Source of the DNA: a virus
Taxonomy: Duplodnaviria; Heunggongvirae; Uroviricota; Caudoviricetes
Length of the DNA stretch: 25,956 nucleotides
IMG/VR virus record: IMGVR_UViG_2711768059_000012
Coordinates: 1 to 25,956 of that record
Strand: one strand, 5' to 3'
Under the pieces are notes generated by a model. The model was not told where the DNA came from and did no database searches. It saw only the letters and a list, made by a program, of their open reading frames with translations. The position numbers and the translations under genes are program-made. Positions 1 through 14,665 of this stretch are shown piece after piece (positions within the stretch are counted from its first letter, which is position 1; the number at the start of each line of letters is the position of its first letter).

Positions 1-1032
1 TCAAACAGTTGCTGTTGATGTTGGTAGTGTAGCCAGCGGATTAAACCGTAATGCAGTTTCCAGGTGATCCGGTGCCAGATGTGCGTAACGCATGGTCATT
101 TTTATGTCGTGATGTCCGAGGATTTTTTGCAAAGCAAGGATATTTCCACCCGACATCATGAAATGCGCCGCAAACGTATGGCGCAGAACGTGTGTCAGTT
201 GACCGCGAGGGAGTACGATGGACGTTTTTTCCATCACGGATAAAAATTGAAAATAGCAGTCTGTGAAGAAATTGAACCCATCAAGCGCCATGATCTCTTC
301 GTAAAGGTCTTTACTGATAGGGATGCTTCTGTTTTTCTTCCCCTTCGTTCTTACAAAGGTAATTCGGTATTTGGTCACCTGTGAGCGGGTAAGATTTACG
401 GCTTCACGCCAACGTGCGCCTGTGCTTAAGCATATCTTAACTACCAGTGCCAGAATTGGGTCCTGACGTTTGCAATCAGCCAGCAATTCAACAATCTGCT
501 CATGGGTAAGCCATGCCATCTCTTTTTCTGCGATGGTGAATTTTCGCATGTTCTCCAGTGGGTTCGGATACGACCATTCGCCCAGGCGGGATAGTTCGCT
601 AAAAACACTACTTAGATAGCTTTGCTCCAGGTTAATGGTGACCGGGCTTGCTCCTTTCTTCCATTTCTCGCTGAAGTAGATCTCACCTGTCAGGCGTTTA
701 TCTCGATAGTGGGCAAACATTTTAGATGTGAGATCAGTTGCAAGGGGATTGCCCAGAGCGTCAACCATCAACAGCAGTTTGTCATAGACATGCTGGCCAG
801 CTGTCAGAGATTTACCATGTAGTTTGAACCATAGTTCAACCACGTCTTTCAGTGTTCGACGATCCACTGATTCGCCCAGCCAGGGCTTTGCTTCGGTTTC
901 TTCCATCGTGTGACGCTCAAAAGCCAGAGCTTCGCCTTTGGTGGCGAATTGTTTACGCACACGACGTCCGCTACGTCCGGCGGGGTAACATTCGCAAAGC
1001 CATTTTCCTGTGGTGAGTTTTCGTACTGCCAT
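1..1032 (-). CDS. int: Tyrosine integrase (P2/186-type site-specific recombinase)
   Basis: 343-aa ORF with tyrosine-recombinase catalytic signature in order (R in STGARWREA, HVLRHTFA box, RYAHL with catalytic Tyr). Stop codon is at the window edge (pos 1-3). Position next to the repressor is typical of P2-like prophages. Confidence 0.9.
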   Translation of the reverse strand: MAVRKLTTGKWLCECYPAGRSGRRVRKQFATKGEALAFERHTMEETEAKPWLGESVDRRTLKDVVELWFKLHGKSLTAGQHVYDKLLLMVDALGNPLATDLTSKMFAHYRDKRLTGEIYFSEKWKKGASPVTINLEQSYLSSVFSELSRLGEWSYPNPLENMRKFTIAEKEMAWLTHEQIVELLADCKRQDPILALVVKICLSTGARWREAVNLTRSQVTKYRITFVRTKGKKNRSIPISKDLYEEIMALDGFNFFTDCYFQFLSVMEKTSIVLPRGQLTHVLRHTFAAHFMMSGGNILALQKILGHHDIKMTMRYAHLAPDHLETALRFNPLATLPTSTATV

Positions 1033-1104: not shown

Positions 1105-2874
1105 TCATACGTCAGGGGTAATCCAGTCGACTAAAGCCTCAATACTTTCGAAATCTGCACAGATATCTGAAAGAGGTTGTGTATCTGCTTTTGTTTTGAA
1201 ATCAGCCCATACTGATTCATTTTTTTCTGTAAGACCCAAATGGTTTTCTATCGAACCATTTAGCCAAATCCAAATATTTGCATTTCTCAGTTTTGCGGCT
1301 AATGATGACAAAAATTCTCTGGCGCCGGGCTTTTGAGACATAATAGCAAATGCTTCAGCTGCGGTAGTGTTACTACCCCTTGTAGGCAAACCGGATCCAT
1401 CGAGAGTGCATTCTCCATTAGCATGCATACTTCTCAAGATTTCTTTTAGTCGTAAAATATCCTCGTCATTATGTTCTAAGAAGTTGTTCCTTATTGCACC
1501 GCGGAACGCAAAATCTAAATCAACAATTGCTTTTGTAGGTATATCCATTGAATTTAGAATTTGCATCGTTTTAGATATACTTTCAACGGACCCTGTTTCA
1601 ATTAGTGCTATTTGCATCTGACCTAATGTTTTATTTTTAACTTTGTTAAAAATAAATGGGAGCAGAGTAGTCTCTGTTTTACCTTCTGTTAGTATTACAT
1701 TGTTAGCAAACAAAACTTTTGAAGACTGTGTTAATGAAAATAAATGGGTTGCTTGTGCTGGTCGTTGTTCGATTACTTTATTGACTGCTTCTTTTAATGT
1801 TAATCTGCAATGAGTGCCACGCTGACTGTTTTTTCTGATTAACACAGTGTCTTTTGCTAAGTCAGAGGTAATCATTTGAGATGAATGGGTAGAGAAAATT
1901 ATTTGATATCCATGATGAGATAGTGTTTTTAGAGATTCTCTAATTTGTTCGATAGCAAATGGGTGAAGATATAACTCAGGTTCATCTATTAACAGTAGAG
2001 TAGTTGTTTTAATATCATCACCGTTGGTTATATCAGCTAAATGTCTTATTAGAGCCATCTGAATCGAACGCTGTGTGCCATGACCATAAGAAGAACAGTC
2101 ACGAGCAATGCCGGGAAATGAATCTTCATATACTTTTACAGTCCCTGATTTAAATATATCCTTGAAGTCAGGGAGTTCGAAGTGTAGTTTTAAACTTATC
2201 CCAGGGAAGAAATCAGCAACTTTACTACTTATTGAATCATCAATATCATTGAGGTCCGATATTCGTTTATTACCGGTTGCAGTCATTCTTCTATTAACGG
2301 CATTTAAATGGCTTAGTATCATTTGAGTGTGCTTCTCTTCTATTTTGCAACTCAATTCTGCCAGCAACTTACCTATTGTAGTTCCTGTTTTTGATTTTGA
2401 AGAATCATCCGCTGCATTTTCCATTGCACCTATACGTATTGGGTCTGGAAATAAAGCTTTTATCGCATTCTCAATACCCGTTGGTGATGTTCTGAATTCG
2501 TTATTTTCTGGGTTTTTAATTAATAATCTGACGTCTTTTGCACTTTGAGCACCAACAGGCTGTTGACGCTTAAATATCAATGCCTCATCAATAATGTAGG
2601 GTGAAATTCTAGTTCTGTTTTCTTCTGTTAAAGCTGACAAAATATCTTCAGTAATACCCTTAACTGTGCCTATAACTTCTATAGGGTTATCTGGATTAGT
2701 ATAATCATCAGAGGACAAAAGTTTTTTCTTAAAAAGCCATTCAATAGCATTTAAAATCGTTGACTTACCAGCATTGTTGTAACCGATTAAAGGCGTGAAT
2801 GAAGAAAAATTGATATCAATATCTTTGCAAGATCTAAAGTTTTTTATAGAAATCTTTGAAAGATGATGATTCAT
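1105..2874 (-). CDS. OLD-family ATP-dependent endonuclease (N-terminal ABC/AAA ATPase + C-terminal Toprim), P2 Old-like
   Basis: 589-aa ORF. N-terminus IKNFRSCKD...GYNNAGKST (Walker A), LLLIDEPELYLHP (Walker B/D-loop region), C-terminal VILTEGKTE and AIVDLDF resembling Toprim Glu and DxD. Strong RBS (GGAGGAG, 6 nt before ATG). Visibly AT-rich compared with flanking phage genes. Confidence 0.7.
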   Translation of the reverse strand: MNHHLSKISIKNFRSCKDIDINFSSFTPLIGYNNAGKSTILNAIEWLFKKKLLSSDDYTNPDNPIEVIGTVKGITEDILSALTEENRTRISPYIIDEALIFKRQQPVGAQSAKDVRLLIKNPENNEFRTSPTGIENAIKALFPDPIRIGAMENAADDSSKSKTGTTIGKLLAELSCKIEEKHTQMILSHLNAVNRRMTATGNKRISDLNDIDDSISSKVADFFPGISLKLHFELPDFKDIFKSGTVKVYEDSFPGIARDCSSYGHGTQRSIQMALIRHLADITNGDDIKTTTLLLIDEPELYLHPFAIEQIRESLKTLSHHGYQIIFSTHSSQMITSDLAKDTVLIRKNSQRGTHCRLTLKEAVNKVIEQRPAQATHLFSLTQSSKVLFANNVILTEGKTETTLLPFIFNKVKNKTLGQMQIALIETGSVESISKTMQILNSMDIPTKAIVDLDFAFRGAIRNNFLEHNDEDILRLKEILRSMHANGECTLDGSGLPTRGSNTTAAEAFAIMSQKPGAREFLSSLAAKLRNANIWIWLNGSIENHLGLTEKNESVWADFKTKADTQPLSDICADFESIEALVDWITPDV

Positions 2875-2917: not shown

Positions 2918-3856
2918 TTATTGTATTGTTAAGATAATGCTGGCTATAATTTGAATATCTTCAATGGAACACTCAAAATCCTTACTCCCACCAGAAACAA
3001 GAATTTTGTTCTTAGGTAAACGAGTTAACTCTTTTAAAGATAACTCATTGTCAATTCCTACTAACCATTTTCCATCTCTAATTAGGTGAAATTCTTTATC
3101 ACATATGACATGTTTTTCTCCATTGCTTACAAACATCAAGCTGCTAGTTTCTTGCTTCGGAAGTAGACACCGATCCATGGATAAAAAACCTGACTCGACA
3201 AGCACGCCATTGACCAAATTGAACTTATTTAAAATTACAGTGTTTTCTTCTTGTGAACTATTTGGTGTTTCGATTCCTGTAACTAGCCAGGCGAGATCCG
3301 CTTTGGTTTCTAATGCGCATTTAATCACCCAATCCGCAGGGAAAGAATCTCGCATGTATCGTGTGGCTAATGTGCTTTTTGAAATACCAAGGTGGTCGGC
3401 TAAGGCTTGGCGGGTTTTAAACCCGTAAGCATTAACAATCCTCTCTATCGCGGCTTTTCCTCCGTTAGTAAGCTCAATATGATTCTCAATGCGGCGCTTA
3501 AAGGATGATTGATGAGCGTTGCTGTTAAACCCCTCATGTGGGACTGTTTCATCATGTTGTTCCACATAAGGGGGGAAACTTTCTTCTGCATTGTTAGAAC
3601 CAAAGGCCAGCCATTCTAGGGATGCGCCAGTTTCCATTGAACATATAACAACCCAATCAGCAGGGAAGGTATCGCGTGCATATCTATTAGCCATTGTGCT
3701 TTGTGAAATACCAAGATGCTTACAGAAGGCTTGGCGTGATTTGAAACCATAGGCCTTGAGTATCCTCTCAATGACTTTTTGCCCTCCACGATTCTGCATG
3801 ACCATAGCTTTCAGACTATCTTCAATATGGCGAAATGTGATTTTTTGAGTTGACAT
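2918..3856 (-). CDS. cI: CI-type immunity repressor (186 CI family) with tandemly duplicated N-terminal HTH domain
   Basis: 312-aa ORF divergent from the apl/cII operon. Two ~58-aa copies of IERI(L/V)(K/N)AYGFK(S/T)RQA...HLGIS(Q/K)ST(M/L)A(N/T)RY(A/M)RD(T/S)FPADWV..., at residues ~29-86 and ~137-194, then a C-terminal domain. The duplication is also visible at the DNA level. Confidence 0.8.
   Translation of the reverse strand: MSTQKITFRHIEDSLKAMVMQNRGGQKVIERILKAYGFKSRQAFCKHLGISQSTMANRYARDTFPADWVVICSMETGASLEWLAFGSNNAEESFPPYVEQHDETVPHEGFNSNAHQSSFKRRIENHIELTNGGKAAIERIVNAYGFKTRQALADHLGISKSTLATRYMRDSFPADWVIKCALETKADLAWLVTGIETPNSSQEENTVILNKFNLVNGVLVESGFLSMDRCLLPKQETSSLMFVSNGEKHVICDKEFHLIRDGKWLVGIDNELSLKELTRLPKNKILVSGGSKDFECSIEDIQIIASIILTIQ
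3275..3772 (-). repeat. Intragenic tandem duplication (two ~174-bp copies, 3599-3772 and 3275-3448) encoding the two HTH modules of the repressor
   Basis: Protein-level repeat seen directly. Shared DNA strings such as gaaataccaag and aaggcttggcg occur in both copies. Confidence 0.7.
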
Positions 3857-6599: not shown

Positions 6600-7426
6600 A
6601 AGAAATGCACCACGGAATTCATCATTTCCATGGGACGCCTGTCTGGGGAAGTGCTGGCGACGTTCATCGTATTGCGGTGAGCGGAGCTGGCGCTTTCGTC
6701 TCCTATGTACGACCAGATCAGATTGCGGCGTCCATTCAGCACGCTCAGGTCGTCGGCATTGATAACGGCGCATTTTCTGCATGGGTGCGTGGGCTAAAAA
6801 TTAACTGGAGTGATTTTTATAAATGGCTCCTGAACTATTACCACCATCCTAAGGTCGCTTTTTTTGTCATTCCTGATGTTGTGGACGGAGGTGAACGTGA
6901 CAATGATGCCCTGATAAACGAAGTTCCGAAAATGTTCTACGGGAAGGCAACTCCCGTCTGGCATCTGCACGAGTCAATCGATCGGCTTATCGAGCTATGT
7001 CGTGAATGGCCTCGTGTCTGCTTTGGATCGTCTGGTGAATATGCGGCTATCAGAACTGCGCACTGGCATCGTCGTATGCAGGACGCTTTTGAAGCAATTT
7101 ATTGCCGACACAATTTCAAAACAGCTGTTCATGGTTTGCGCATGCTTGACGGTCGTGTGTTGGGAAATTACCCACTGGCGACTGCCGACAGTACAAATCT
7201 TGCCTGCAATGTCCCCAAATTTAATAGCAAATATCCTGAGCTGACGCGGGCTATTCAGGAGGCTGAGTATTCGCGCAATCTGACGGAAAAGGAGCTGAAA
7301 GCTGTCATTCTGAAAAACCGTTGCGCAATTTTAAAAGGTGCAATTGAAGCTGTTCGCCCACCTTCAGTTTCTGATTGGCTGTCGAATGGTTTGCAGCCTT
7401 CACAGCTCGAACTGGAGATTGCGTAA
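6596..7426 (+). CDS. Hypothetical protein, possibly a minimal TGT/DpdA-like (7-deazaguanine) transglycosylase (speculative)
   Basis: 276-aa ORF (GTG 6596 overlapping the dam stop, or ATG 6605). Motifs in the same order as in tRNA-guanine transglycosylases as I recall them: GTPVWGSAG (cf. TPAFMPVGT), [11 protein letters not shown] (cf. ILTDSGGFQV), FFVIPD (cf. MAFDE), FGSSGE (cf. GGLAVGE). No Zn-binding Cys cluster. The assignment rests on remembered motifs only. Confidence 0.55.
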
Positions 7427-9798
7427 TGAACTACAGCTATTCCTGGAATGCTGAGAAAAAAGCAATCAATCCTTACGTAGAGACAGAAGAGCAATCTTCA
7501 GTTTCTGCGCTTTCAAACCTGATCGCTCTGTACGCTGCCGATAACGAGCAGGAACAGCTGCGCCGCGAGGCACTGAGTGATCAGGTCTGGGAGCGTTATT
7601 TCTTTAATGAATCCCGTGATCCTGTCCAGCGCGAAATGGAGCAGGATAAGCTCATTAGTCGGGCAAAGCTGGCGCATGAGCAGCAGCGTTTTAATCCAGA
7701 TATGGTCATTCTGGCGGACGTCAATGCCCAGCCTTCCCATATCAGCAAGCCGCTGATGCAACGTATTGAATACTTCAGCAGCCTGGGCAGGCCAAAGGCT
7801 TATTCCCGCTATTTGCGTGAGACGATTAAGCCATGTCTGGAACGGCTGGAGCATGTACGCGACTGTCAGCTATCCACTTCTTTTCGCTTTATGGCAAGCC
7901 ATGAAGGGCTGGACGGCCTGCTGATCCTGCCTGAAATGAGTCAGGATCAGGTGAAACGCCTGTCCACCCTGGTAGCTGCGCATATGAGCATGTGCCTTGA
8001 TGCAGCTTGTGGCGATTTGTATGTCACCGATGACGTTAAGCCAGAAGAAATCCGCAAGACATGGGAAAAGGTGGCAGCGGAAACCCTGCGTCTGGATGTC
8101 ATCCCGCCTGCGTTTGAGCAACTCCGCCGGAAAAGAAACCGCCGTAAACCCGTGCCCTATGAACTCATTCCGGGTTCGCTGGCGCGTATGTTGTGCGCTG
8201 ACTGGTGGTACCGGAAATTATGGAAGATGCGTTGCGAATGGCGGGAAGAGCAGTTGCGTGCTGTCTGCCTGGTCAGCAAAAAAGCATCTCCCTATGTCAG
8301 CTATGAAGCCGTGATGCATAAACGTGAGCAGCGCCGTAAGTCGCTGGAGTTTTTTCGTTCTCATGAACTGGTGAACGAAGACGGCGACACGCTGGATATG
8401 GAAGACGTGGTAAACGCCAGCAGCAGCAACCCTGCGCATCGCCGCAATGAGATGATGGCCTGTGTTAAAGGCCTGGAGCTTATCGCGGAAATGCGCGGTG
8501 ACTGCGCCGTTTTCTACACCATCACCTGTCCGTCACGTTTCCATTCCACGCTAAATAATGGCAGGCCCAACCCAACTTGGACAAATGCGACGGTAAGACA
8601 AAGCAGTGATTATCTGGTCGGCATGTTTGCTGCATTTCGTAAGGCGATGCACAAAGCCGGATTGCGGTGGTATGGCGTGCGGGTGGCTGAGCCGCATCAT
8701 GACGGTACAGTTCACTGGCACCTGTTGTGTTTTATGCGCAAAAAAGACCGCCGCGCCATCACTGCATTACTGCGTAAGTTTGCCATCCGTGAAGACCGCG
8801 AGGAACTGGGCAATAACACTGGGCCGCGCTTTAAGTCTGAGTTGATTAACCCGCGCAAAGGTACGCCAACAAGCTACATCGCGAAATACATCAGTAAGAA
8901 CATTGACGGGCGTGGTCTGGCTGGCGAGATCAGCAAGGAAACGGGGAAATCCCTGCGTGATAATGCTGAATACGTTAATGCCTGGGCGTCTCTGCATCGT
9001 GTTCAGCAATTCCGCTTCTTTGGCATTCCGGGGCGTCAGGCTTACCGTGAACTGCGATTGCTGGCTGGTCAGGCGGCAAGGCAACAGGGGGACAAAAAAG
9101 CAGGTGCGCCGGTACTGGATAACCCGCGCCTTGATGCCATCCTGGCTGCTGCTGATGCTGGTTGTTTTGCCACCTACATCATGAAGCAGGGCGGCGTACT
9201 GGTTCCCCGCAAATATCACCTCATCAGAACCGCTTATGAAATCAACGAAGAGCCGACCGCCTATGGCGATCACGGCATTCGTATTTATGGCATCTGGTCA
9301 CCTATTGCAGAGGGCAAGATCTGCACTCATGCCGTGAAGTGGAAAATGGTTCGTAAGGCCGTTGATGTTCAGGAGGCGGCAGCCGACCAGGGCGCTTGCG
9401 CCCCTTGGACTCGTGGCAATAACTGTCCCCTTGCTGAAAATTTGAAACAACAAGGGAAAGACAAATCAGCTGATGGGGATACCAGAACGGATATCACCCG
9501 CATGGATGACAAGGAGTTGCACGATTACCTGCACAGTATGAGCAAAAAAGAGCGCCGGGAACTGGCTGCAAGGTTACGCCTGGTGAAACCGAAACGGCGT
9601 AAAGACTACAAACAGCGAATTACAGACCATCAGCGACAGCAGCTCGTCTATGAACTGAAGTCCAGAGGATTTGATGGCAGCGAGAAAGAGGTCGATTTAC
9701 TCCTTCGCGGCGGCAGTATTCCGTCAGGAGCAGGCCTGCGTATCTTCTATCGGAACCAGCGTTTGCAGGAAGATGATAAGTGGCGAAACCTGTATTAA
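7426..9798 (+). CDS. A: Rolling-circle replication initiator endonuclease (P2 gpA family)
   Basis: 790-aa product from ATG 7426 (overlaps the upstream stop as TAATG). HUH motif TVHWHLLCF and paired active-site tyrosines in [11 protein letters not shown]. Size matches P2 A. Confidence 0.9.
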
Positions 9799-10384: not shown

Positions 10385-10520
10385 TAGGTTTCGTTTGTAA
10401 TGAGTCATGTTTTTTGAGTCCGATAGTAGACAGCTAGAGGGATAAATGATTAATAGATAGATTAAACATAGTGATGGGCGTAAAATCGCGCGCATTTTAT
10501 TGGCAACGGATCTGAACTCA

Positions 10521-11414
10521 ATGGCGGATAAGACTCAATCAGTAAGTATTGTGTATCAAGGCAAAGCTCTCGACGATCATAAGATGGATATTCTTTCGTT
10601 TGCGAAAAGTTTGCAGGGGCTAGGTGAGGCTATCTACTCTGCAAATGAGATTGTAAACGGAGGGCGAGACATTGAAGTTAACGTTGACGCTGAATTGATA
10701 GCCGGTTCCTTTGGGTTTGATATTGAGGTTGTACAACATCTAGCTAATGCTAAAGATGTTGTACAAATTTTAGGTTTGTCAGCCATTCCTTTAGCCGTTG
10801 GCGGTGCTACAGTTTTAGAGGTTCTCAAGAAGCTTAACGGGCGTAAGATCGACATAGTCGAGAAAGCTAACGGTAGTGACAAAGTTAAGCTGAAAGTCGA
10901 TGGTGAAGAGATTGTTTGCTCTGAAGATGTCGAAAAAATCGTTAATGCCCCAGAGATTCGTAAGGCTGTTGACGCGTTTGTCAGACAGCCTCTGTTACAA
11001 GATGGTATCGACAATTTTGTGGTAAAAAAATCGCGCACCTCTAAGAAAGAAATCCTCAAAATTCATAAAGATGAGGCAGAAGAGTTTAAGTCGCCAAAAG
11101 TTCTCTTTGAAACCAAAGAAGAAGTTGACGAATTTGAAACAACCGTGACATTCGTTTCGGCGCATACTGACAAAAAAAGTGGCTGGCGTGTTGAGTTTGG
11201 CGGTGAAAAGCGCAATGTCAGAATGGAAGATAATGAGTTCATCAAGCTTGTTACTGGACCAGACGCCCCCAAAATTTTTGGCGAATTGTTTGCTGTGAAG
11301 ATGAAGAAAATTGTGAAAGATTCCGGTGGCCAGGTAGACGAAAAGTTATCGATCATCAAAGTGGGTCGACACTTTGCCGCCAAAGATAGAAAAATAAAAC
11401 CTGATGCGGATTAA
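10521..11414 (+). CDS. Hypothetical soluble protein, first gene of a three-gene accessory module
   Basis: 298-aa (ATG 10521; TTG 10500 also possible), Lys/Glu-rich, no recognised catalytic motif. Sits in a visibly AT-rich stretch. Stop is 2 nt before the next start. Confidence 0.6.
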   Translation: MADKTQSVSIVYQGKALDDHKMDILSFAKSLQGLGEAIYSANEIVNGGRDIEVNVDAELIAGSFGFDIEVVQHLANAKDVVQILGLSAIPLAVGGATVLEVLKKLNGRKIDIVEKANGSDKVKLKVDGEEIVCSEDVEKIVNAPEIRKAVDAFVRQPLLQDGIDNFVVKKSRTSKKEILKIHKDEAEEFKSPKVLFETKEEVDEFETTVTFVSAHTDKKSGWRVEFGGEKRNVRMEDNEFIKLVTGPDAPKIFGELFAVKMKKIVKDSGGQVDEKLSIIKVGRHFAAKDRKIKPDAD

Positions 11415-11416
11415 AA

Positions 11417-11680
11417 ATGTCTATAGATATTAGTGTGTTAGGATGGTTGGGGCTGCTTGTTGCAGCTCCAGCTATATTTATAGGTGCTAGAGTGGCTATA
11501 CGTAGCCTGCTCGATCGAGTTATTGTCGAAACAAAAGTTTCTATCACTTATACTGATGCAAACAAAAATGTCTATAAAACAAATATTTATATAAACAATG
11601 ATGATGAGTTAATAAAGCTCATCGATGATATAGCAGAGAAAAATAAGCGTGAGAGGAAGGAGTCAGCCTCTCATGCCTGA
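11417..11680 (+). CDS. Small membrane protein (one N-terminal TM helix), second gene of the module
   Basis: 87-aa. Hydrophobic VLGWLGLLVAAPAIFIGARVAI then a charged C-terminal tail. Coupled to both neighbours. Confidence 0.55.
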   Translation: MSIDISVLGWLGLLVAAPAIFIGARVAIRSLLDRVIVETKVSITYTDANKNVYKTNIYINNDDELIKLIDDIAEKNKRERKESASHA

Positions 11681-12089
11681 ACAAAAGAAAACAAGCGGTA
11701 AAGCAGTCGGTGTTACAGGTGGCGGCGGTGTAGGCCTTTTCCTAATAAAGCTGGCTAGCTTCATTACAGATCCAACATGGAAAGACCTTTACATTGCTTC
11801 AATACCGATGGTGTCAATTCTTTTAAGCGAAGTTTTTACTTTTGCATGGACGATTTATGCTGTTGATCCGCAAGAAATCAAACTGAAAAGGCGGTTGAAG
11901 GCTCTGAAGAAGCAAGCCGAAGCAGTTTTAAATGCACCATCGTCCCCTGTTTCTCCAGAAATGCGAGAGAAAGCGCAGGCTCGTTACGACGTGATCTGTG
12001 GAATTGAAATGGGAATTTACCCCCTCTCAATTGTAAATACGCTAGATGGAAAAGTATCCCCCACAGCGCAAACGCCGGACGTTAAATAG
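11673..12089 (+). CDS. Small membrane protein (two predicted TM helices, Gly-zipper), third gene of the module
   Basis: 138-aa from ATG 11673 (GAGGAAGGAG upstream; 8-nt overlap with previous gene). GVTGGGGVGLFLIKLASFI and IASIPMVSILLSEVFTFAWTIYAV hydrophobic segments, then a basic coiled region. Confidence 0.55.
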   Translation: MPEQKKTSGKAVGVTGGGGVGLFLIKLASFITDPTWKDLYIASIPMVSILLSEVFTFAWTIYAVDPQEIKLKRRLKALKKQAEAVLNAPSSPVSPEMREKAQARYDVICGIEMGIYPLSIVNTLDGKVSPTAQTPDVK

Positions 12090-12225: not shown

Positions 12226-12244
12226 GGCGTGGCGGGGATACGAG
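12226..12244. other. Candidate cos (cohesive-end) site
   Basis: GGCGTGGCGGGGATACGAG. The first 13 nt match the 186 cos 19-mer as I recall it (GGCGTGGCGGGGAAAGCAT; 15/19 overall), and the A-to-Q location matches where cos lies in P2/186. Confidence 0.4.
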
Positions 12245-12326
12245 TGCGCGCAATACGGTTCGATAAGAATTCACTTCGACTATGTTTTTAGATAATCTGG
12301 CAATAAAAGGATGAGGAGAATGGCAA

Positions 12327-13568
12327 ATGCAAAGAATAGTTTTTTACTCTTGGCAATCTGATTTAAATGGAAAATGTAATAGAAATTTAATTCAAGATGC
12401 TTTGGTTAGATCTCTAAAAGCAATAAAAAAGGATGAAACAGAAACATTGGAGCCAGTCTTGGATCGTGATACTAATGGTTTAAATGGCTCACCATCAATT
12501 AGCGAAAGCATTTTTAATAAAATATCACTTTCAGATGTTTTTGTTGCCGATGTTTCTATCATAAATGGAAGGTCTGAGGATAAGAAGACACCTAATCCAA
12601 ATGTTTTGATTGAATTAGGATATGCAGTATCCCAGCTAGGCTGGGATAGAGTAATCATGGTCCAGAATACATTTTATGGTTCTCCAGAAGAACTTCCTTT
12701 TGACTTAAGAGGACGGAGGGTAATTGCATATACTATGGACCCTGATAGTGATTCAAAACCTGAGGTAAGAAGCTTACTGCAAGGGCGACTTGAAACTGCA
12801 TTAAGGGAGTCCTTGAGTGATTCAAGCCAAGGAGCTATTTCTTCAGGTTTAAATGCACCAATATGGTGGGGGGAGTGGTACAAGGACAATCGCAGAAGTA
12901 ATTTTGGCAAATTATTTATTCGTGAAACATCGTCAAATGGTTTTCTTTTTGATTTAGTAGTTATGAATGGATCACATTCTGGGAGTATTACAGGAGAGGC
13001 GGTTTTTGTAGCTAGAGATTCAGCTTACGCTAGAATAAAAATACCTGGAAGTAATGAATTTGGCGAGTTGAGTTTTAGGCGCAGCATATTTGATGGTAAA
13101 CGATATATTAGGATAAGTGAGACCGTTAGTTGTCAATACTGGCGAGGTATGGGGGCCTTTTTTGATGGTGAGTTTCGTTGTGCAGAGGATCATTTGTTTT
13201 TATTTGGTTTTGCAAATGAAATGGAACTTCAGAGATTATACAACGTTATGGGGCAATATTACTTTGAACTGAAAAAAGTGATGGAGCAAATAGGTGAGCG
13301 CGATAATCTTGATACTTTTGTCGCAAAGGCTTATCAGGGAGGAGTTAGAGGACTTTATACCATTGCGGAAGGTATGGTGATGTTTGGTAGAGAGGGCGAG
13401 ATATGGGCTATTTATCTCAATGATGGTGAAATTCGTTATTTCACAAATGTACATAAATGGAAAAAAACTATTCCAAAAACTTTTGAACAGTGGCGAGAAC
13501 GATTTCCAGAGATTGAAATAAATTATGGAGGTGATATCTCGACACTTCCTACACAAGAAGATTTATAG
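12327..13568 (+). CDS. Two-domain protein: N-terminal TIR-like/nucleoside 2-deoxyribosyltransferase-like domain plus uncharacterised C-terminal domain; candidate anti-phage effector
   Basis: 413-aa. GAGGAG RBS 7 nt upstream. N-terminus RIVFYSWQSD (cf. TIR beta-A FISYSxxD) and NPNVLIELGYA (Glu96 in an E-[LI]-G-Y-A context as in the NDT/TIR-like superfamily). Very AT-rich. Followed by a hairpin terminator. Confidence 0.65.
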   Translation: MQRIVFYSWQSDLNGKCNRNLIQDALVRSLKAIKKDETETLEPVLDRDTNGLNGSPSISESIFNKISLSDVFVADVSIINGRSEDKKTPNPNVLIELGYAVSQLGWDRVIMVQNTFYGSPEELPFDLRGRRVIAYTMDPDSDSKPEVRSLLQGRLETALRESLSDSSQGAISSGLNAPIWWGEWYKDNRRSNFGKLFIRETSSNGFLFDLVVMNGSHSGSITGEAVFVARDSAYARIKIPGSNEFGELSFRRSIFDGKRYIRISETVSCQYWRGMGAFFDGEFRCAEDHLFLFGFANEMELQRLYNVMGQYYFELKKVMEQIGERDNLDTFVAKAYQGGVRGLYTIAEGMVMFGREGEIWAIYLNDGEIRYFTNVHKWKKTIPKTFEQWRERFPEIEINYGGDISTLPTQEDL

Positions 13569-13575
13569 ACAAATG

Positions 13576-13610
13576 ACCCGCGATTCGCCAACGCGGGTTT
13601 TGTTTGTTCA
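13576..13610. terminator. Hairpin (ACCCGCG...CGCGGGT) followed by T-rich tract; terminator between the convergent accessory gene and Q
   Basis: 7-bp GC-rich stem with 9-nt loop then TTTTGTTTGTT. An A-run follows, so it may act in both directions. Confidence 0.55.
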
Positions 13611-13621
13611 AAAAAAAATCA

Positions 13622-14665
13622 TTAAGTTATGTTGGGTTCAAATGCATAAGAATCAAAACGAATTACTTGTTCATTGGCCCAGCTATTCAGTTCCTCAAAA
13701 CGCTTCTGTAGAGGGATCAGTTCATTTCGAACAAAAACGCGGCTGGCCTTCTCCACATCCCCAAACCCCCCGACATTATTCGGCATAATCCCCATCATCT
13801 GTGGCGGAACACGATGCGCCGCCATCATGTCATCGCGGCTGACGTTCTTGATGTTCAGAAATTCATCTTTCGCCGCGACTTCTGACAACGGGATGATCTG
13901 AAGCCCGTCTTTTTTGCCGTTAGGCGAGTACATAAACAGGTTGCGGAAGTTGCCCGGGCCTTTGGCGCTTTTCATTGCGTTGCGGAGGTTGTTCACGTCC
14001 TCCTGGTTCTGCGCGGCATCGGTCATGTACATGATGAAGCCTGCATGACTGCCGTTAATGTAATACTTGCGGCGGAACAGCGTGGCGGACTCGTTGAGCA
14101 GGGCTGACGGAATGGCAGAAAGATAACCGGGCAGGCCGTAGATCTCCTGGTTGATATCCGGTTCTATCAGATGAAAAATGCTGCCTTTCGTGAACTGATA
14201 CGGCTGGGTTGTCATACCGTATTGCACAAACCAGTAGGTATCCAGGTCTAACCCGCGTCGGGTGTATTTTGCCAGAGCAGGCTCAAGGGCGATAACTTCA
14301 CCGAAGCGGTTCGTGCGTTTCTCCAGGTAGGCGTTACCAAATACCAGATAGTCCTGCACAAAACGTGAAAAAGCCTGCTGGCTGAGCAGCGGGTGGGGGA
14401 TGTAGGTACTGGTCAGAATGTTGCATTTCACCGCAATTGGTGAACTGTGATGCACGGCGGCGCGGAAGGTGCGCGCCAGTCCGTCAAAGCTTACTGGCGG
14501 CTCATACCAGCGATCTGTCTGTACGCATTCCACATAGTCCAGTAGTTCGCGGCGGTCCAGAACAGGAACGGGATCACCGAAGCTGAATGCTTCGGCTGTA
14601 GTCTGACTTTTATGCTGGATCTGGTTCGTCGACGCAGCGCGGTTCTTCTTACTCTTTCCCATCAA
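13622..14665 (-). CDS. Q: Portal protein (P2 gpQ family)
   Basis: 347-aa (P2 Q is ~344 aa). Start overlaps the stop of the upstream terminase gene. Conserved position next to P and divergent from O. Confidence 0.9.
   Translation of the reverse strand: MMGKSKKNRAASTNQIQHKSQTTAEAFSFGDPVPVLDRRELLDYVECVQTDRWYEPPVSFDGLARTFRAAVHHSSPIAVKCNILTSTYIPHPLLSQQAFSRFVQDYLVFGNAYLEKRTNRFGEVIALEPALAKYTRRGLDLDTYWFVQYGMTTQPYQFTKGSIFHLIEPDINQEIYGLPGYLSAIPSALLNESATLFRRKYYINGSHAGFIMYMTDAAQNQEDVNNLRNAMKSAKGPGNFRNLFMYSPNGKKDGLQIIPLSEVAAKDEFLNIKNVSRDDMMAAHRVPPQMMGIMPNNVGGFGDVEKASRVFVRNELIPLQKRFEELNSWANEQVIRFDSYAFEPNIT

Follow-up and report, generated by a model that had tools for sequence, protein, structure and literature searches.

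The window analysed here, the 25,956-nucleotide (nt) stretch of DNA at positions 1 to 25,956 of IMG/VR record IMGVR_UViG_2711768059_000012, is a P2-like (186/Fels-2-like) Escherichia coli prophage that carries, between its cos-like site and its portal gene Q, one gene whose 413-amino-acid (aa) product joins a TIR-like N-terminal domain to a C-terminal module containing a beta-barrel (Table 1; hereafter the TIR gene and TIR protein). On balance we consider it probable that the TIR gene serves on its own as an anti-phage (superinfection-exclusion) module of one protein, occupies the cos-portal slot as cargo, and acts by abortive infection as an enzyme that hydrolyses nicotinamide adenine dinucleotide (an NADase, acting on NAD+), with the C-terminal module sensing the trigger and clustering the TIR domains. 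We read the gene as an abortive-infection system because of its conserved Glu96, FYSWQSD and DRDT elements, its stand-alone status, its defence context, the modularity with which the C-terminal module pairs with TIR domains, and the precedents described below.

The open reading frame (ORF) is complete, and its product begins MQRIVFYSWQSD. A sequence-only reading of this DNA had described a 413-aa ORF with FYSWQSD and a glutamate at position 96, and had proposed that its N-terminus resembles TIR and nucleoside deoxyribosyltransferase folds used by defence effectors; the observation is confirmed exactly as described, with FYSWQSD at residues 6-12 and Glu96 within NPNVLIELGYA, and the interpretation is supported in all the parts that can be checked in silico. 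The product shows 99% identity to WP_023277642.1, which PGAP names 'TIR domain-containing protein', and an annotated homologue is present in E. coli CUWW06. The gene is indeed very AT-rich, with a G+C fraction of 0.38-0.39 versus 0.54-0.60 in the portal, terminase and capsid genes, and it has its own ribosome-binding site 7 nt before the ATG.

The N-terminal domain has, in an AlphaFold model built on 118 homologues with a mean predicted local distance difference test (pLDDT) score of 86, the flavodoxin-like three-dimensional fold of TIR domains. Residues 54-135 match Pfam PF10137, the TIR family of CAP12/Pycsar effectors, with 26.5 bits against a gathering cut-off of 24.7 (E 6.7e-6; profile positions 37-117 of 119), a label that many homologues carry as a precomputed annotation too. 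The PADLOC models of CBASS TIR effectors match the TIR protein at 1.8e-9 and 4.5e-8, and that of PycTIR at 4.5e-3; the NCBIfam model of full-length Cap12 gave 14.8 bits, far under its cut-off of 450, and the PADLOC ThsB models gave no match. In a Foldseek search of the domain against the PDB, TIR-STING filaments ranked at the top (7un8, E 2.4e-4; 9lmq) and a deoxyribosyltransferase came next; these structural scores indicate topology rather than family. The fold is accordingly described as TIR/deoxyribosyltransferase-like, and the family, as assigned from the sequence profile, is that of Cap12/PycTIR.

The equal fold scores for TIR and deoxyribosyltransferase structures would also suit a nucleotide N-glycosidase of the deoxyribosyltransferase/MilB/DNPH1 type, in which Glu96 would be the nucleophile and nucleotides (for example modified phage hydroxymethyl-(d)CMP) would be depleted or destroyed instead of NAD+. 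We consider such an enzyme unlikely, given that the nucleoside 2-deoxyribosyltransferase profile (Nuc_deoxyrib_tr, PF05014) reached only 12.8 bits against a cut-off of 28.8 (E 0.13) while the Cap12/PycTIR family passes its own, that the PADLOC and NCBIfam matches are all to TIR NADase effectors, and that the first strand-loop, FYSWQSD, is of the TIR type (F-x-S-x-x-x-D), unlike the glycine-rich loop of deoxyribosyltransferases. The characterised members of PF10137, TIR-STING and PycTIR, are NADases, which counts further against an N-glycosidase. The TIR domain of the protein is probably an NAD+-destroying enzyme. Its putative catalytic glutamate, Glu96, is not the only invariant residue, as R19, D48, N90-P91-N92, G98 and A100 are likewise identical in 118/118 homologues and FYSWQSD is nearly so; a DRDT loop is invariant or nearly so across the same set, which spans Proteobacteria, Cyanobacteria and Nitrospirota. 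The loop formed by residues 50-53 is flexible in the model and resembles a BB loop.

The prophage is ordered as integrase, Old-family nuclease, CI, CII, Dam-like methylase, gpA, DinI, a three-gene cassette, cos and the TIR gene, followed by portal Q, terminase P and then the genes for capsid, lysis and tail. Rousset et al. (2022, PMC9122126) described the interval from gpA to gpQ, next to cos, as a hotspot of P2 defence genes, and WP_023277642 is listed in Table S5A of that work as 'hypothetical + DinI + TIR-like', outside the set of systems that were cloned. The TIR gene has the properties of hotspot cargo: it lies between gpA and Q, beside cos, in a slot of variable content. The cos-like core, which places it on the portal-proximal side of cos as the sequence-only reading had it, recurs as the same motif adjoining the hotspot in the constructs of Rousset et al. 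The cos region is common to 1210 of 5426 complete E. coli genomes, and just 3 of those 1210 carry the TIR gene; with the gene so rare and the slot so variable, a virion component is rejected as its identity. The sequence-only reading had also pictured the gene as insulated by two hairpins. Both fold, and the downstream one lies between the convergent TIR and portal genes; the upstream one, which separates the three-gene cassette from the TIR gene, is an element of the P2-family backbone beside cos and was not brought by the TIR gene, since the cos region is shared by all 1210 genomes. The region of this hairpin is likewise conserved in the DNA that Rousset et al. cloned.

The TIR gene and the cassette upstream of it occur without each other, and the TIR gene is therefore an independent unit. 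In E. coli 13E0767 (NZ_CP020107.1) the cassette is 100% identical and the TIR gene is absent, the cos-Q slot being occupied by a gene for a 581-aa DUF262 protein (L012, 3722-5467; PADLOC HEC-06 1.2e-89, also Orf5-/SspE-like), while CUWW06 and the IMG/VR contig L013 have the TIR gene without the cassette. The P2 hotspot thus offers a slot on either side of cos, and the contents of the two can be exchanged separately. The same distribution bears on a four-gene system, in which the TIR protein would act together with the three cassette products after the manner of the 2TM+1TM+TIR system of the P2-like phage AC1. Small proteins with one and two transmembrane segments do lie immediately upstream in the same orientation, and the AC1 system of this very hotspot pairs transmembrane proteins with a TIR protein; but cos and the upstream hairpin intervene, the AC1 TIR and the TIR protein are unrelated (BLASTP E=0.31), and the separate occurrence of gene and cassette effectively refutes a common operon, so that we give this arrangement hardly any credence.

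The cassette itself encodes proteins of 304, 87 and 146 aa, in that order; the 87-aa protein has a single hydrophobic helix, and two are present in the 146-aa protein. The 304-aa protein matches PADLOC PDC-S42 (7.8e-44), NCBIfam LAPAL_fam (2e-56; 'putative phage structural protein') and phrog_3243. The cassette is a candidate defence system and, on reading the published sequences, is unlike the 'hp+hp+hp' and 2TM+1TM+TIR systems of Rousset et al.; identity with either was rejected for the TIR gene and for its upstream neighbours alike.

Full-length homologues of the TIR protein, of about 411-415 aa and 45-99% identity, form more than 4473 clusters at 90% identity, and their hosts include Enterobacterales, Shewanella, Aeromonas, Nitrosospira, Methylobacter, Rhodopseudomonas, Paraburkholderia, Cyanobium and Nitrospiria. 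Five other prophages or viral contigs have homologues that adjoin P2-type portal genes (77-99% identity); these homologues are at 100%, 99.5%, 78%, 71% and 63% identity. A Klebsiella homologue occupies the P4 hotspot, between psu and int of a P4-like satellite; the Aeromonas veronii homologue adjoins a ThsB-type TIR gene (PADLOC ThsB1 5e-60), and the Nitrosospira homologue adjoins HEC-03A/B (PADLOC 8e-128). The Shewanella and Rhodopseudomonas copies are lone insertions, and in several genomes the gene is chromosomal and outside prophages. A tblastn search of the TIR protein against 50,697 deposited phage genomes gave no match, and a scan of IMG/VR found 3 loci only. No neighbouring gene was conserved across seven distinct homologue contexts, and the TIR gene was solitary in every context examined. 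One of the portal-adjacent copies, the 78% homologue of IMGVR_UViG_3300013102_000102 (L015, 2779-3986), aligns contiguously over residues 1-227 only, with tblastn reaching residue 403, and its gene may be frameshifted or disrupted. In A. veronii (L008, 6662-7796) the ThsB-type gene lies directly upstream of the homologue and is itself preceded by a gene for a 212-aa protein without a family match; a small island inserted among housekeeping genes thus holds two different TIR genes side by side.

These contexts also bear on the possibility that the TIR domain, as in ThsB of Thoeris, makes a signalling nucleotide for an effector whose gene lies elsewhere, in the host or the prophage, and which the nucleotide would activate, in which case killing by NAD+ depletion would not occur. 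Many bacterial TIR domains do generate signals (10.64898/2025.12.03.692087), and the Aeromonas homologue stands directly beside a ThsB gene. We nevertheless find a signal producer improbable: the seven contexts have no partner gene in common, the ThsB models are silent on this protein, the Pfam family is the effector-type Cap12/PycTIR one, and a lone gene that moves horizontally but needs an effector encoded at a distance would seldom function in a new host, although members of the family occur in several phyla.

About equally improbable is a role outside anti-phage defence, whether as a cargo toxin or host-manipulation factor of the prophage (for instance in growth regulation, in addiction or in TIR-based virulence like that of TcpC) or as a counter-defence enzyme that destroys TIR or CBASS signals. 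The P2 hotspot does hold non-defence cargo, namely partition systems and cytolethal distending toxin (PMC9122126), and relatives of the C-terminal module are mainly extracytoplasmic, some with LprI or SLH fusions. The TIR protein, on the other hand, has no signal peptide and no antitoxin-like partner; a virulence role towards animal hosts is disfavoured because the family is widespread in free-living environmental bacteria (Nitrosospira, Methylobacter, Cyanobium, Rhodopseudomonas), and the chromosomal copies outside prophages, together with ThsB or HEC-03 neighbours in two cases, fit defence better than counter-defence.

The C-terminal region, which the sequence-only reading had given as about 280 aa of unrecognised sequence, is indeed covered by no family of Pfam, NCBIfam or PADLOC across residues 176-405, and is shorter than stated: the module comprises about 230 aa and follows a linker helix and a hinge. 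The module is predicted with confidence (pLDDT 95) as an eight-stranded up-and-down barrel plus a second beta subdomain; a STING, SAVED or cNMP-binding domain was sought in the module and none was recognised. The closest known systems to this barrel are the cyclic-dinucleotide-binding barrel of Cap15 and the calycin- and avidin-like eight-stranded barrels. When the module was compared by phmmer with 1.84 billion cluster representatives, 432 relatives emerged, 231 of them at E <=1e-10. The near-complete ones number 118, of which 11 have a Cap12-type TIR, 8 the unrelated TIR_2 (PF13676, E down to 9e-26) and 99 neither. The module is therefore fused to TIR domains in two independent ways, with types that are not detectably related as far as their sequences can be compared. 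It is autonomous and well folded, and recurs with different N-terminal partners; the module and its pairing with two TIR families appear to be undescribed.

A crude hydrophobicity test of the 99 relatives lacking TIR gave a start resembling a signal peptide or lipobox in 77 and an internal hydrophobic helix in 6. Some relatives lacking TIR bear LprI, SLH, Big_5 or TPR domains. The residues conserved in all groups of relatives are mostly structural (W180, G182, W184, G215, G219, G274, G342, P383 and W389, plus D329 and E348), which suggests that the module is no enzyme but serves in binding or assembly, mainly outside the cytoplasm, and that it was joined to TIR at least twice; H217 is not conserved beyond the TIR fusions. 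More speculatively, and on our estimate rather unlikely, the module may represent an undescribed family of envelope ligand-binding domains, captured at least twice by different TIR families as cytoplasmic immune sensors of an envelope- or lysis-related infection cue, such as a phage endolysin, a peptidoglycan-derived or another small molecule. If true, such capture of an envelope module would be a new class of pattern recognition for TIR immunity, distinct from STING, SAVED, CARF, TPR and NLR sensors.

The envelope family to which the module belongs (represented by P0155, P0180, P0239, P0212, P0200, P0207 and P0265) has no Pfam model and consists mostly of signal-peptide or lipoprotein members, some fused to LprI (PF07007, lysozyme inhibitor), SLH, Big_5 or TPR. 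Many members of the module family share an extra unannotated N-terminal domain of about 100 aa with the motif 'GTYxYxKxxxxIxLxG'. The TIR_2 domain fused to the module in P0206 comes from a very modular set of TIR proteins (P0271-P0352), many of them from Desulfobacterales, whose C-terminal partners include DUF3298 (RsiV-like), DUF1566/Lcl, FGE-sulfatase, pentapeptide repeats, SIR2_2 and NACHT, a number of them domains that usually occur outside the cytoplasm.

For the TIR gene as an abortive-infection NADase, we envisage that in the lysogen the TIR protein would be idle as a monomer or small oligomer. Upon infection by another phage, the C-terminal module would bind a trigger, which could be a protein of the phage or a small molecule linked to infection, and this binding would lead to self-association in which TIR domains meet head-to-tail and form composite active sites around Glu96. 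NAD+ would then be hydrolysed, and the infected cell would stop growing before the invader finishes its cycle. TIR-STING and TIR-SAVED are effectors activated by ligand-driven clustering of their TIR domains in ligand-induced filaments. A TIR-SAVED effector has been reported to work without a cyclase by sensing a host nucleotide (10.1101/2025.06.19.660554), and an orphan effector of this type is therefore plausible.

Several observations weigh against this proposal. The PF10137 match is marginal and covers residues 54-135 only; profiles of the whole family and of the N-terminal domain gave nothing but noise (E above 0.3) when searched against all PDB chain sequences, and hhalign assigned a probability of 1% to the alignment of the N-terminal profile with TIR_2. 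A scan of the DNA upstream of the gene found no promoter of the sigma-70 consensus type, and the search of the C-terminal module for conserved catalytic-looking or obvious pocket residues identified none. The role of the module as a cytoplasmic phage sensor is conjectural because its relatives are mostly signal-peptide or lipoprotein proteins, and the searchable literature returned no experimental work on the TIR-plus-barrel family. We regard the TIR gene, these points included, as a credible candidate anti-phage gene of a familiar kind.

Compared with known systems, the TIR protein resembles the Cap12 (TIR-STING) and PycTIR effectors of CBASS and Pycsar in the TIR family of its N-terminal domain (PF10137), and differs from them in that its C-terminal domain is not STING, SAVED or cNMP-binding; a CD-NTase or pyrimidine cyclase gene was found neither in the window nor beside homologues in the seven contexts. 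In Thoeris, pairing with a ThsA-type or other effector is a feature that the TIR gene lacks, and ThsB is adjacent in the one Aeromonas locus only. The TIR-I to TIR-IX systems and SpbK are single-polypeptide TIR defences of mobile elements that act by abortive infection, as is predicted for the TIR protein, and they are the closest functional model for it. Structural proteins of the phage (portal, tail fibre) activate them directly by clustering their TIR domains, and none is described with a beta-barrel module, a difference that is drawn from their descriptions. Wang et al. (PMC11350192), the source of TIR-I to TIR-IX, report 64 E. coli TIR clusters from 2289 genomes with an October 2020 cut-off; the TIR protein is probably not a member of these, because the three carrier genomes were, judging by their accession numbers, deposited after that date. 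The AC1 2TM+1TM+TIR and TIR-NLR systems of Rousset et al. have in common with the TIR gene and its P4 homologue the TIR basis and the P2/P4 niche; AC1 differs in needing two membrane proteins, and TIR-NLR in having STAND NTPase and TPR domains.

That the P2 hotspot harbours TIR defence genes and that lone TIR defence proteins occur on mobile elements is established, and for the TIR protein itself there exist both an annotation as TIR-containing and an entry in the catalogue of hotspot cargo; a literature search found no papers mentioning the accession WP_023277642. The latest systematic survey of bacterial TIR immunity deliberately discarded standalone TIR proteins (10.64898/2025.12.03.692087), so that such families remain outside the tested sets. 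The present family is large and crosses phyla, and as a single gene of 1.2 kb it lends itself to simple cloning and mutation. If active, it would bring a new member to the few sensor modules that switch on TIR NADases and make it easy to study what such an effector responds to without a cyclase; if inactive, it would be merely another annotated 'TIR domain-containing protein'. The locus in addition reveals the two slots that flank cos in the P2 hotspot.

Table 1. Features of the prophage window around the TIR gene and other loci mentioned in the text.
Feature	Position	Strand	Basis or remark
TIR-plus-beta-barrel gene, complete	12327..13568	+	ORF list; ATG start; 413 aa
N-terminal TIR-like domain, residues 1-143	12327..12755	+	five-stranded flavodoxin-like alpha/beta fold, Cap12/PycTIR type
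Glu96 codon, putative catalytic glutamate	12612..12614	+	invariant in 118/118 aligned homologues; helix 91-104 (alpha-C position) in model
Linker helix (residues 144-167) and flexible hinge (166-175, pLDDT <50)	12756..12851	+	AlphaFold secondary structure and per-residue confidence
C-terminal module, residues 176-405	12852..13541	+	barrel ~180-285, helix 298-318, second beta subdomain 321-400
Shine-Dalgarno sequence GGAGA	12315..12319	+	read from sequence; 7 nt before TIR-gene ATG
cos-like core GGCGTGGCGGGGATACG	12226..12242	+	single match, 0.01 expected by chance
Strong symmetric hairpin (upstream)	12151..12182		fold -27.9 kcal/mol on both strands, z about -7
Intrinsic-terminator-like hairpin (ACCCGCG/CGCGGGT) with T-rich tail (downstream)	13576..13608	+	terminator scan; -17.6 kcal/mol, z -3.15
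Portal gene (Q)	13622-14665	-	convergent with TIR gene
Replication endonuclease gpA	7375-9798		
Three-gene cassette	10500-12089	+	between DinI and cos
Integrase	1-1032		
Old-family gene	1105-2874	-	589 aa
CI ORF	2918-3856	-	312 aa

Two further genes of the window were observed in passing. The CI ORF shows in Pfam two separate Phage_CI_repr helix-turn-helix stretches and a C-terminal domain; compared with the 210-aa CI annotated in a related prophage (L001), it may have an N-terminal duplication or extension, and a mechanically chosen upstream start codon could have lengthened it artificially. The Old-family gene, located in an AT-rich stretch between the integrase and CI genes, encodes an ATPase/TOPRIM nuclease (PADLOC Old 8.7e-234; Pfam AAA_15 and OLD-like_TOPRIM) and gives the prophage a second accessory locus for defence, at a distance from the gpA-gpQ hotspot, in which P2 itself carries old.

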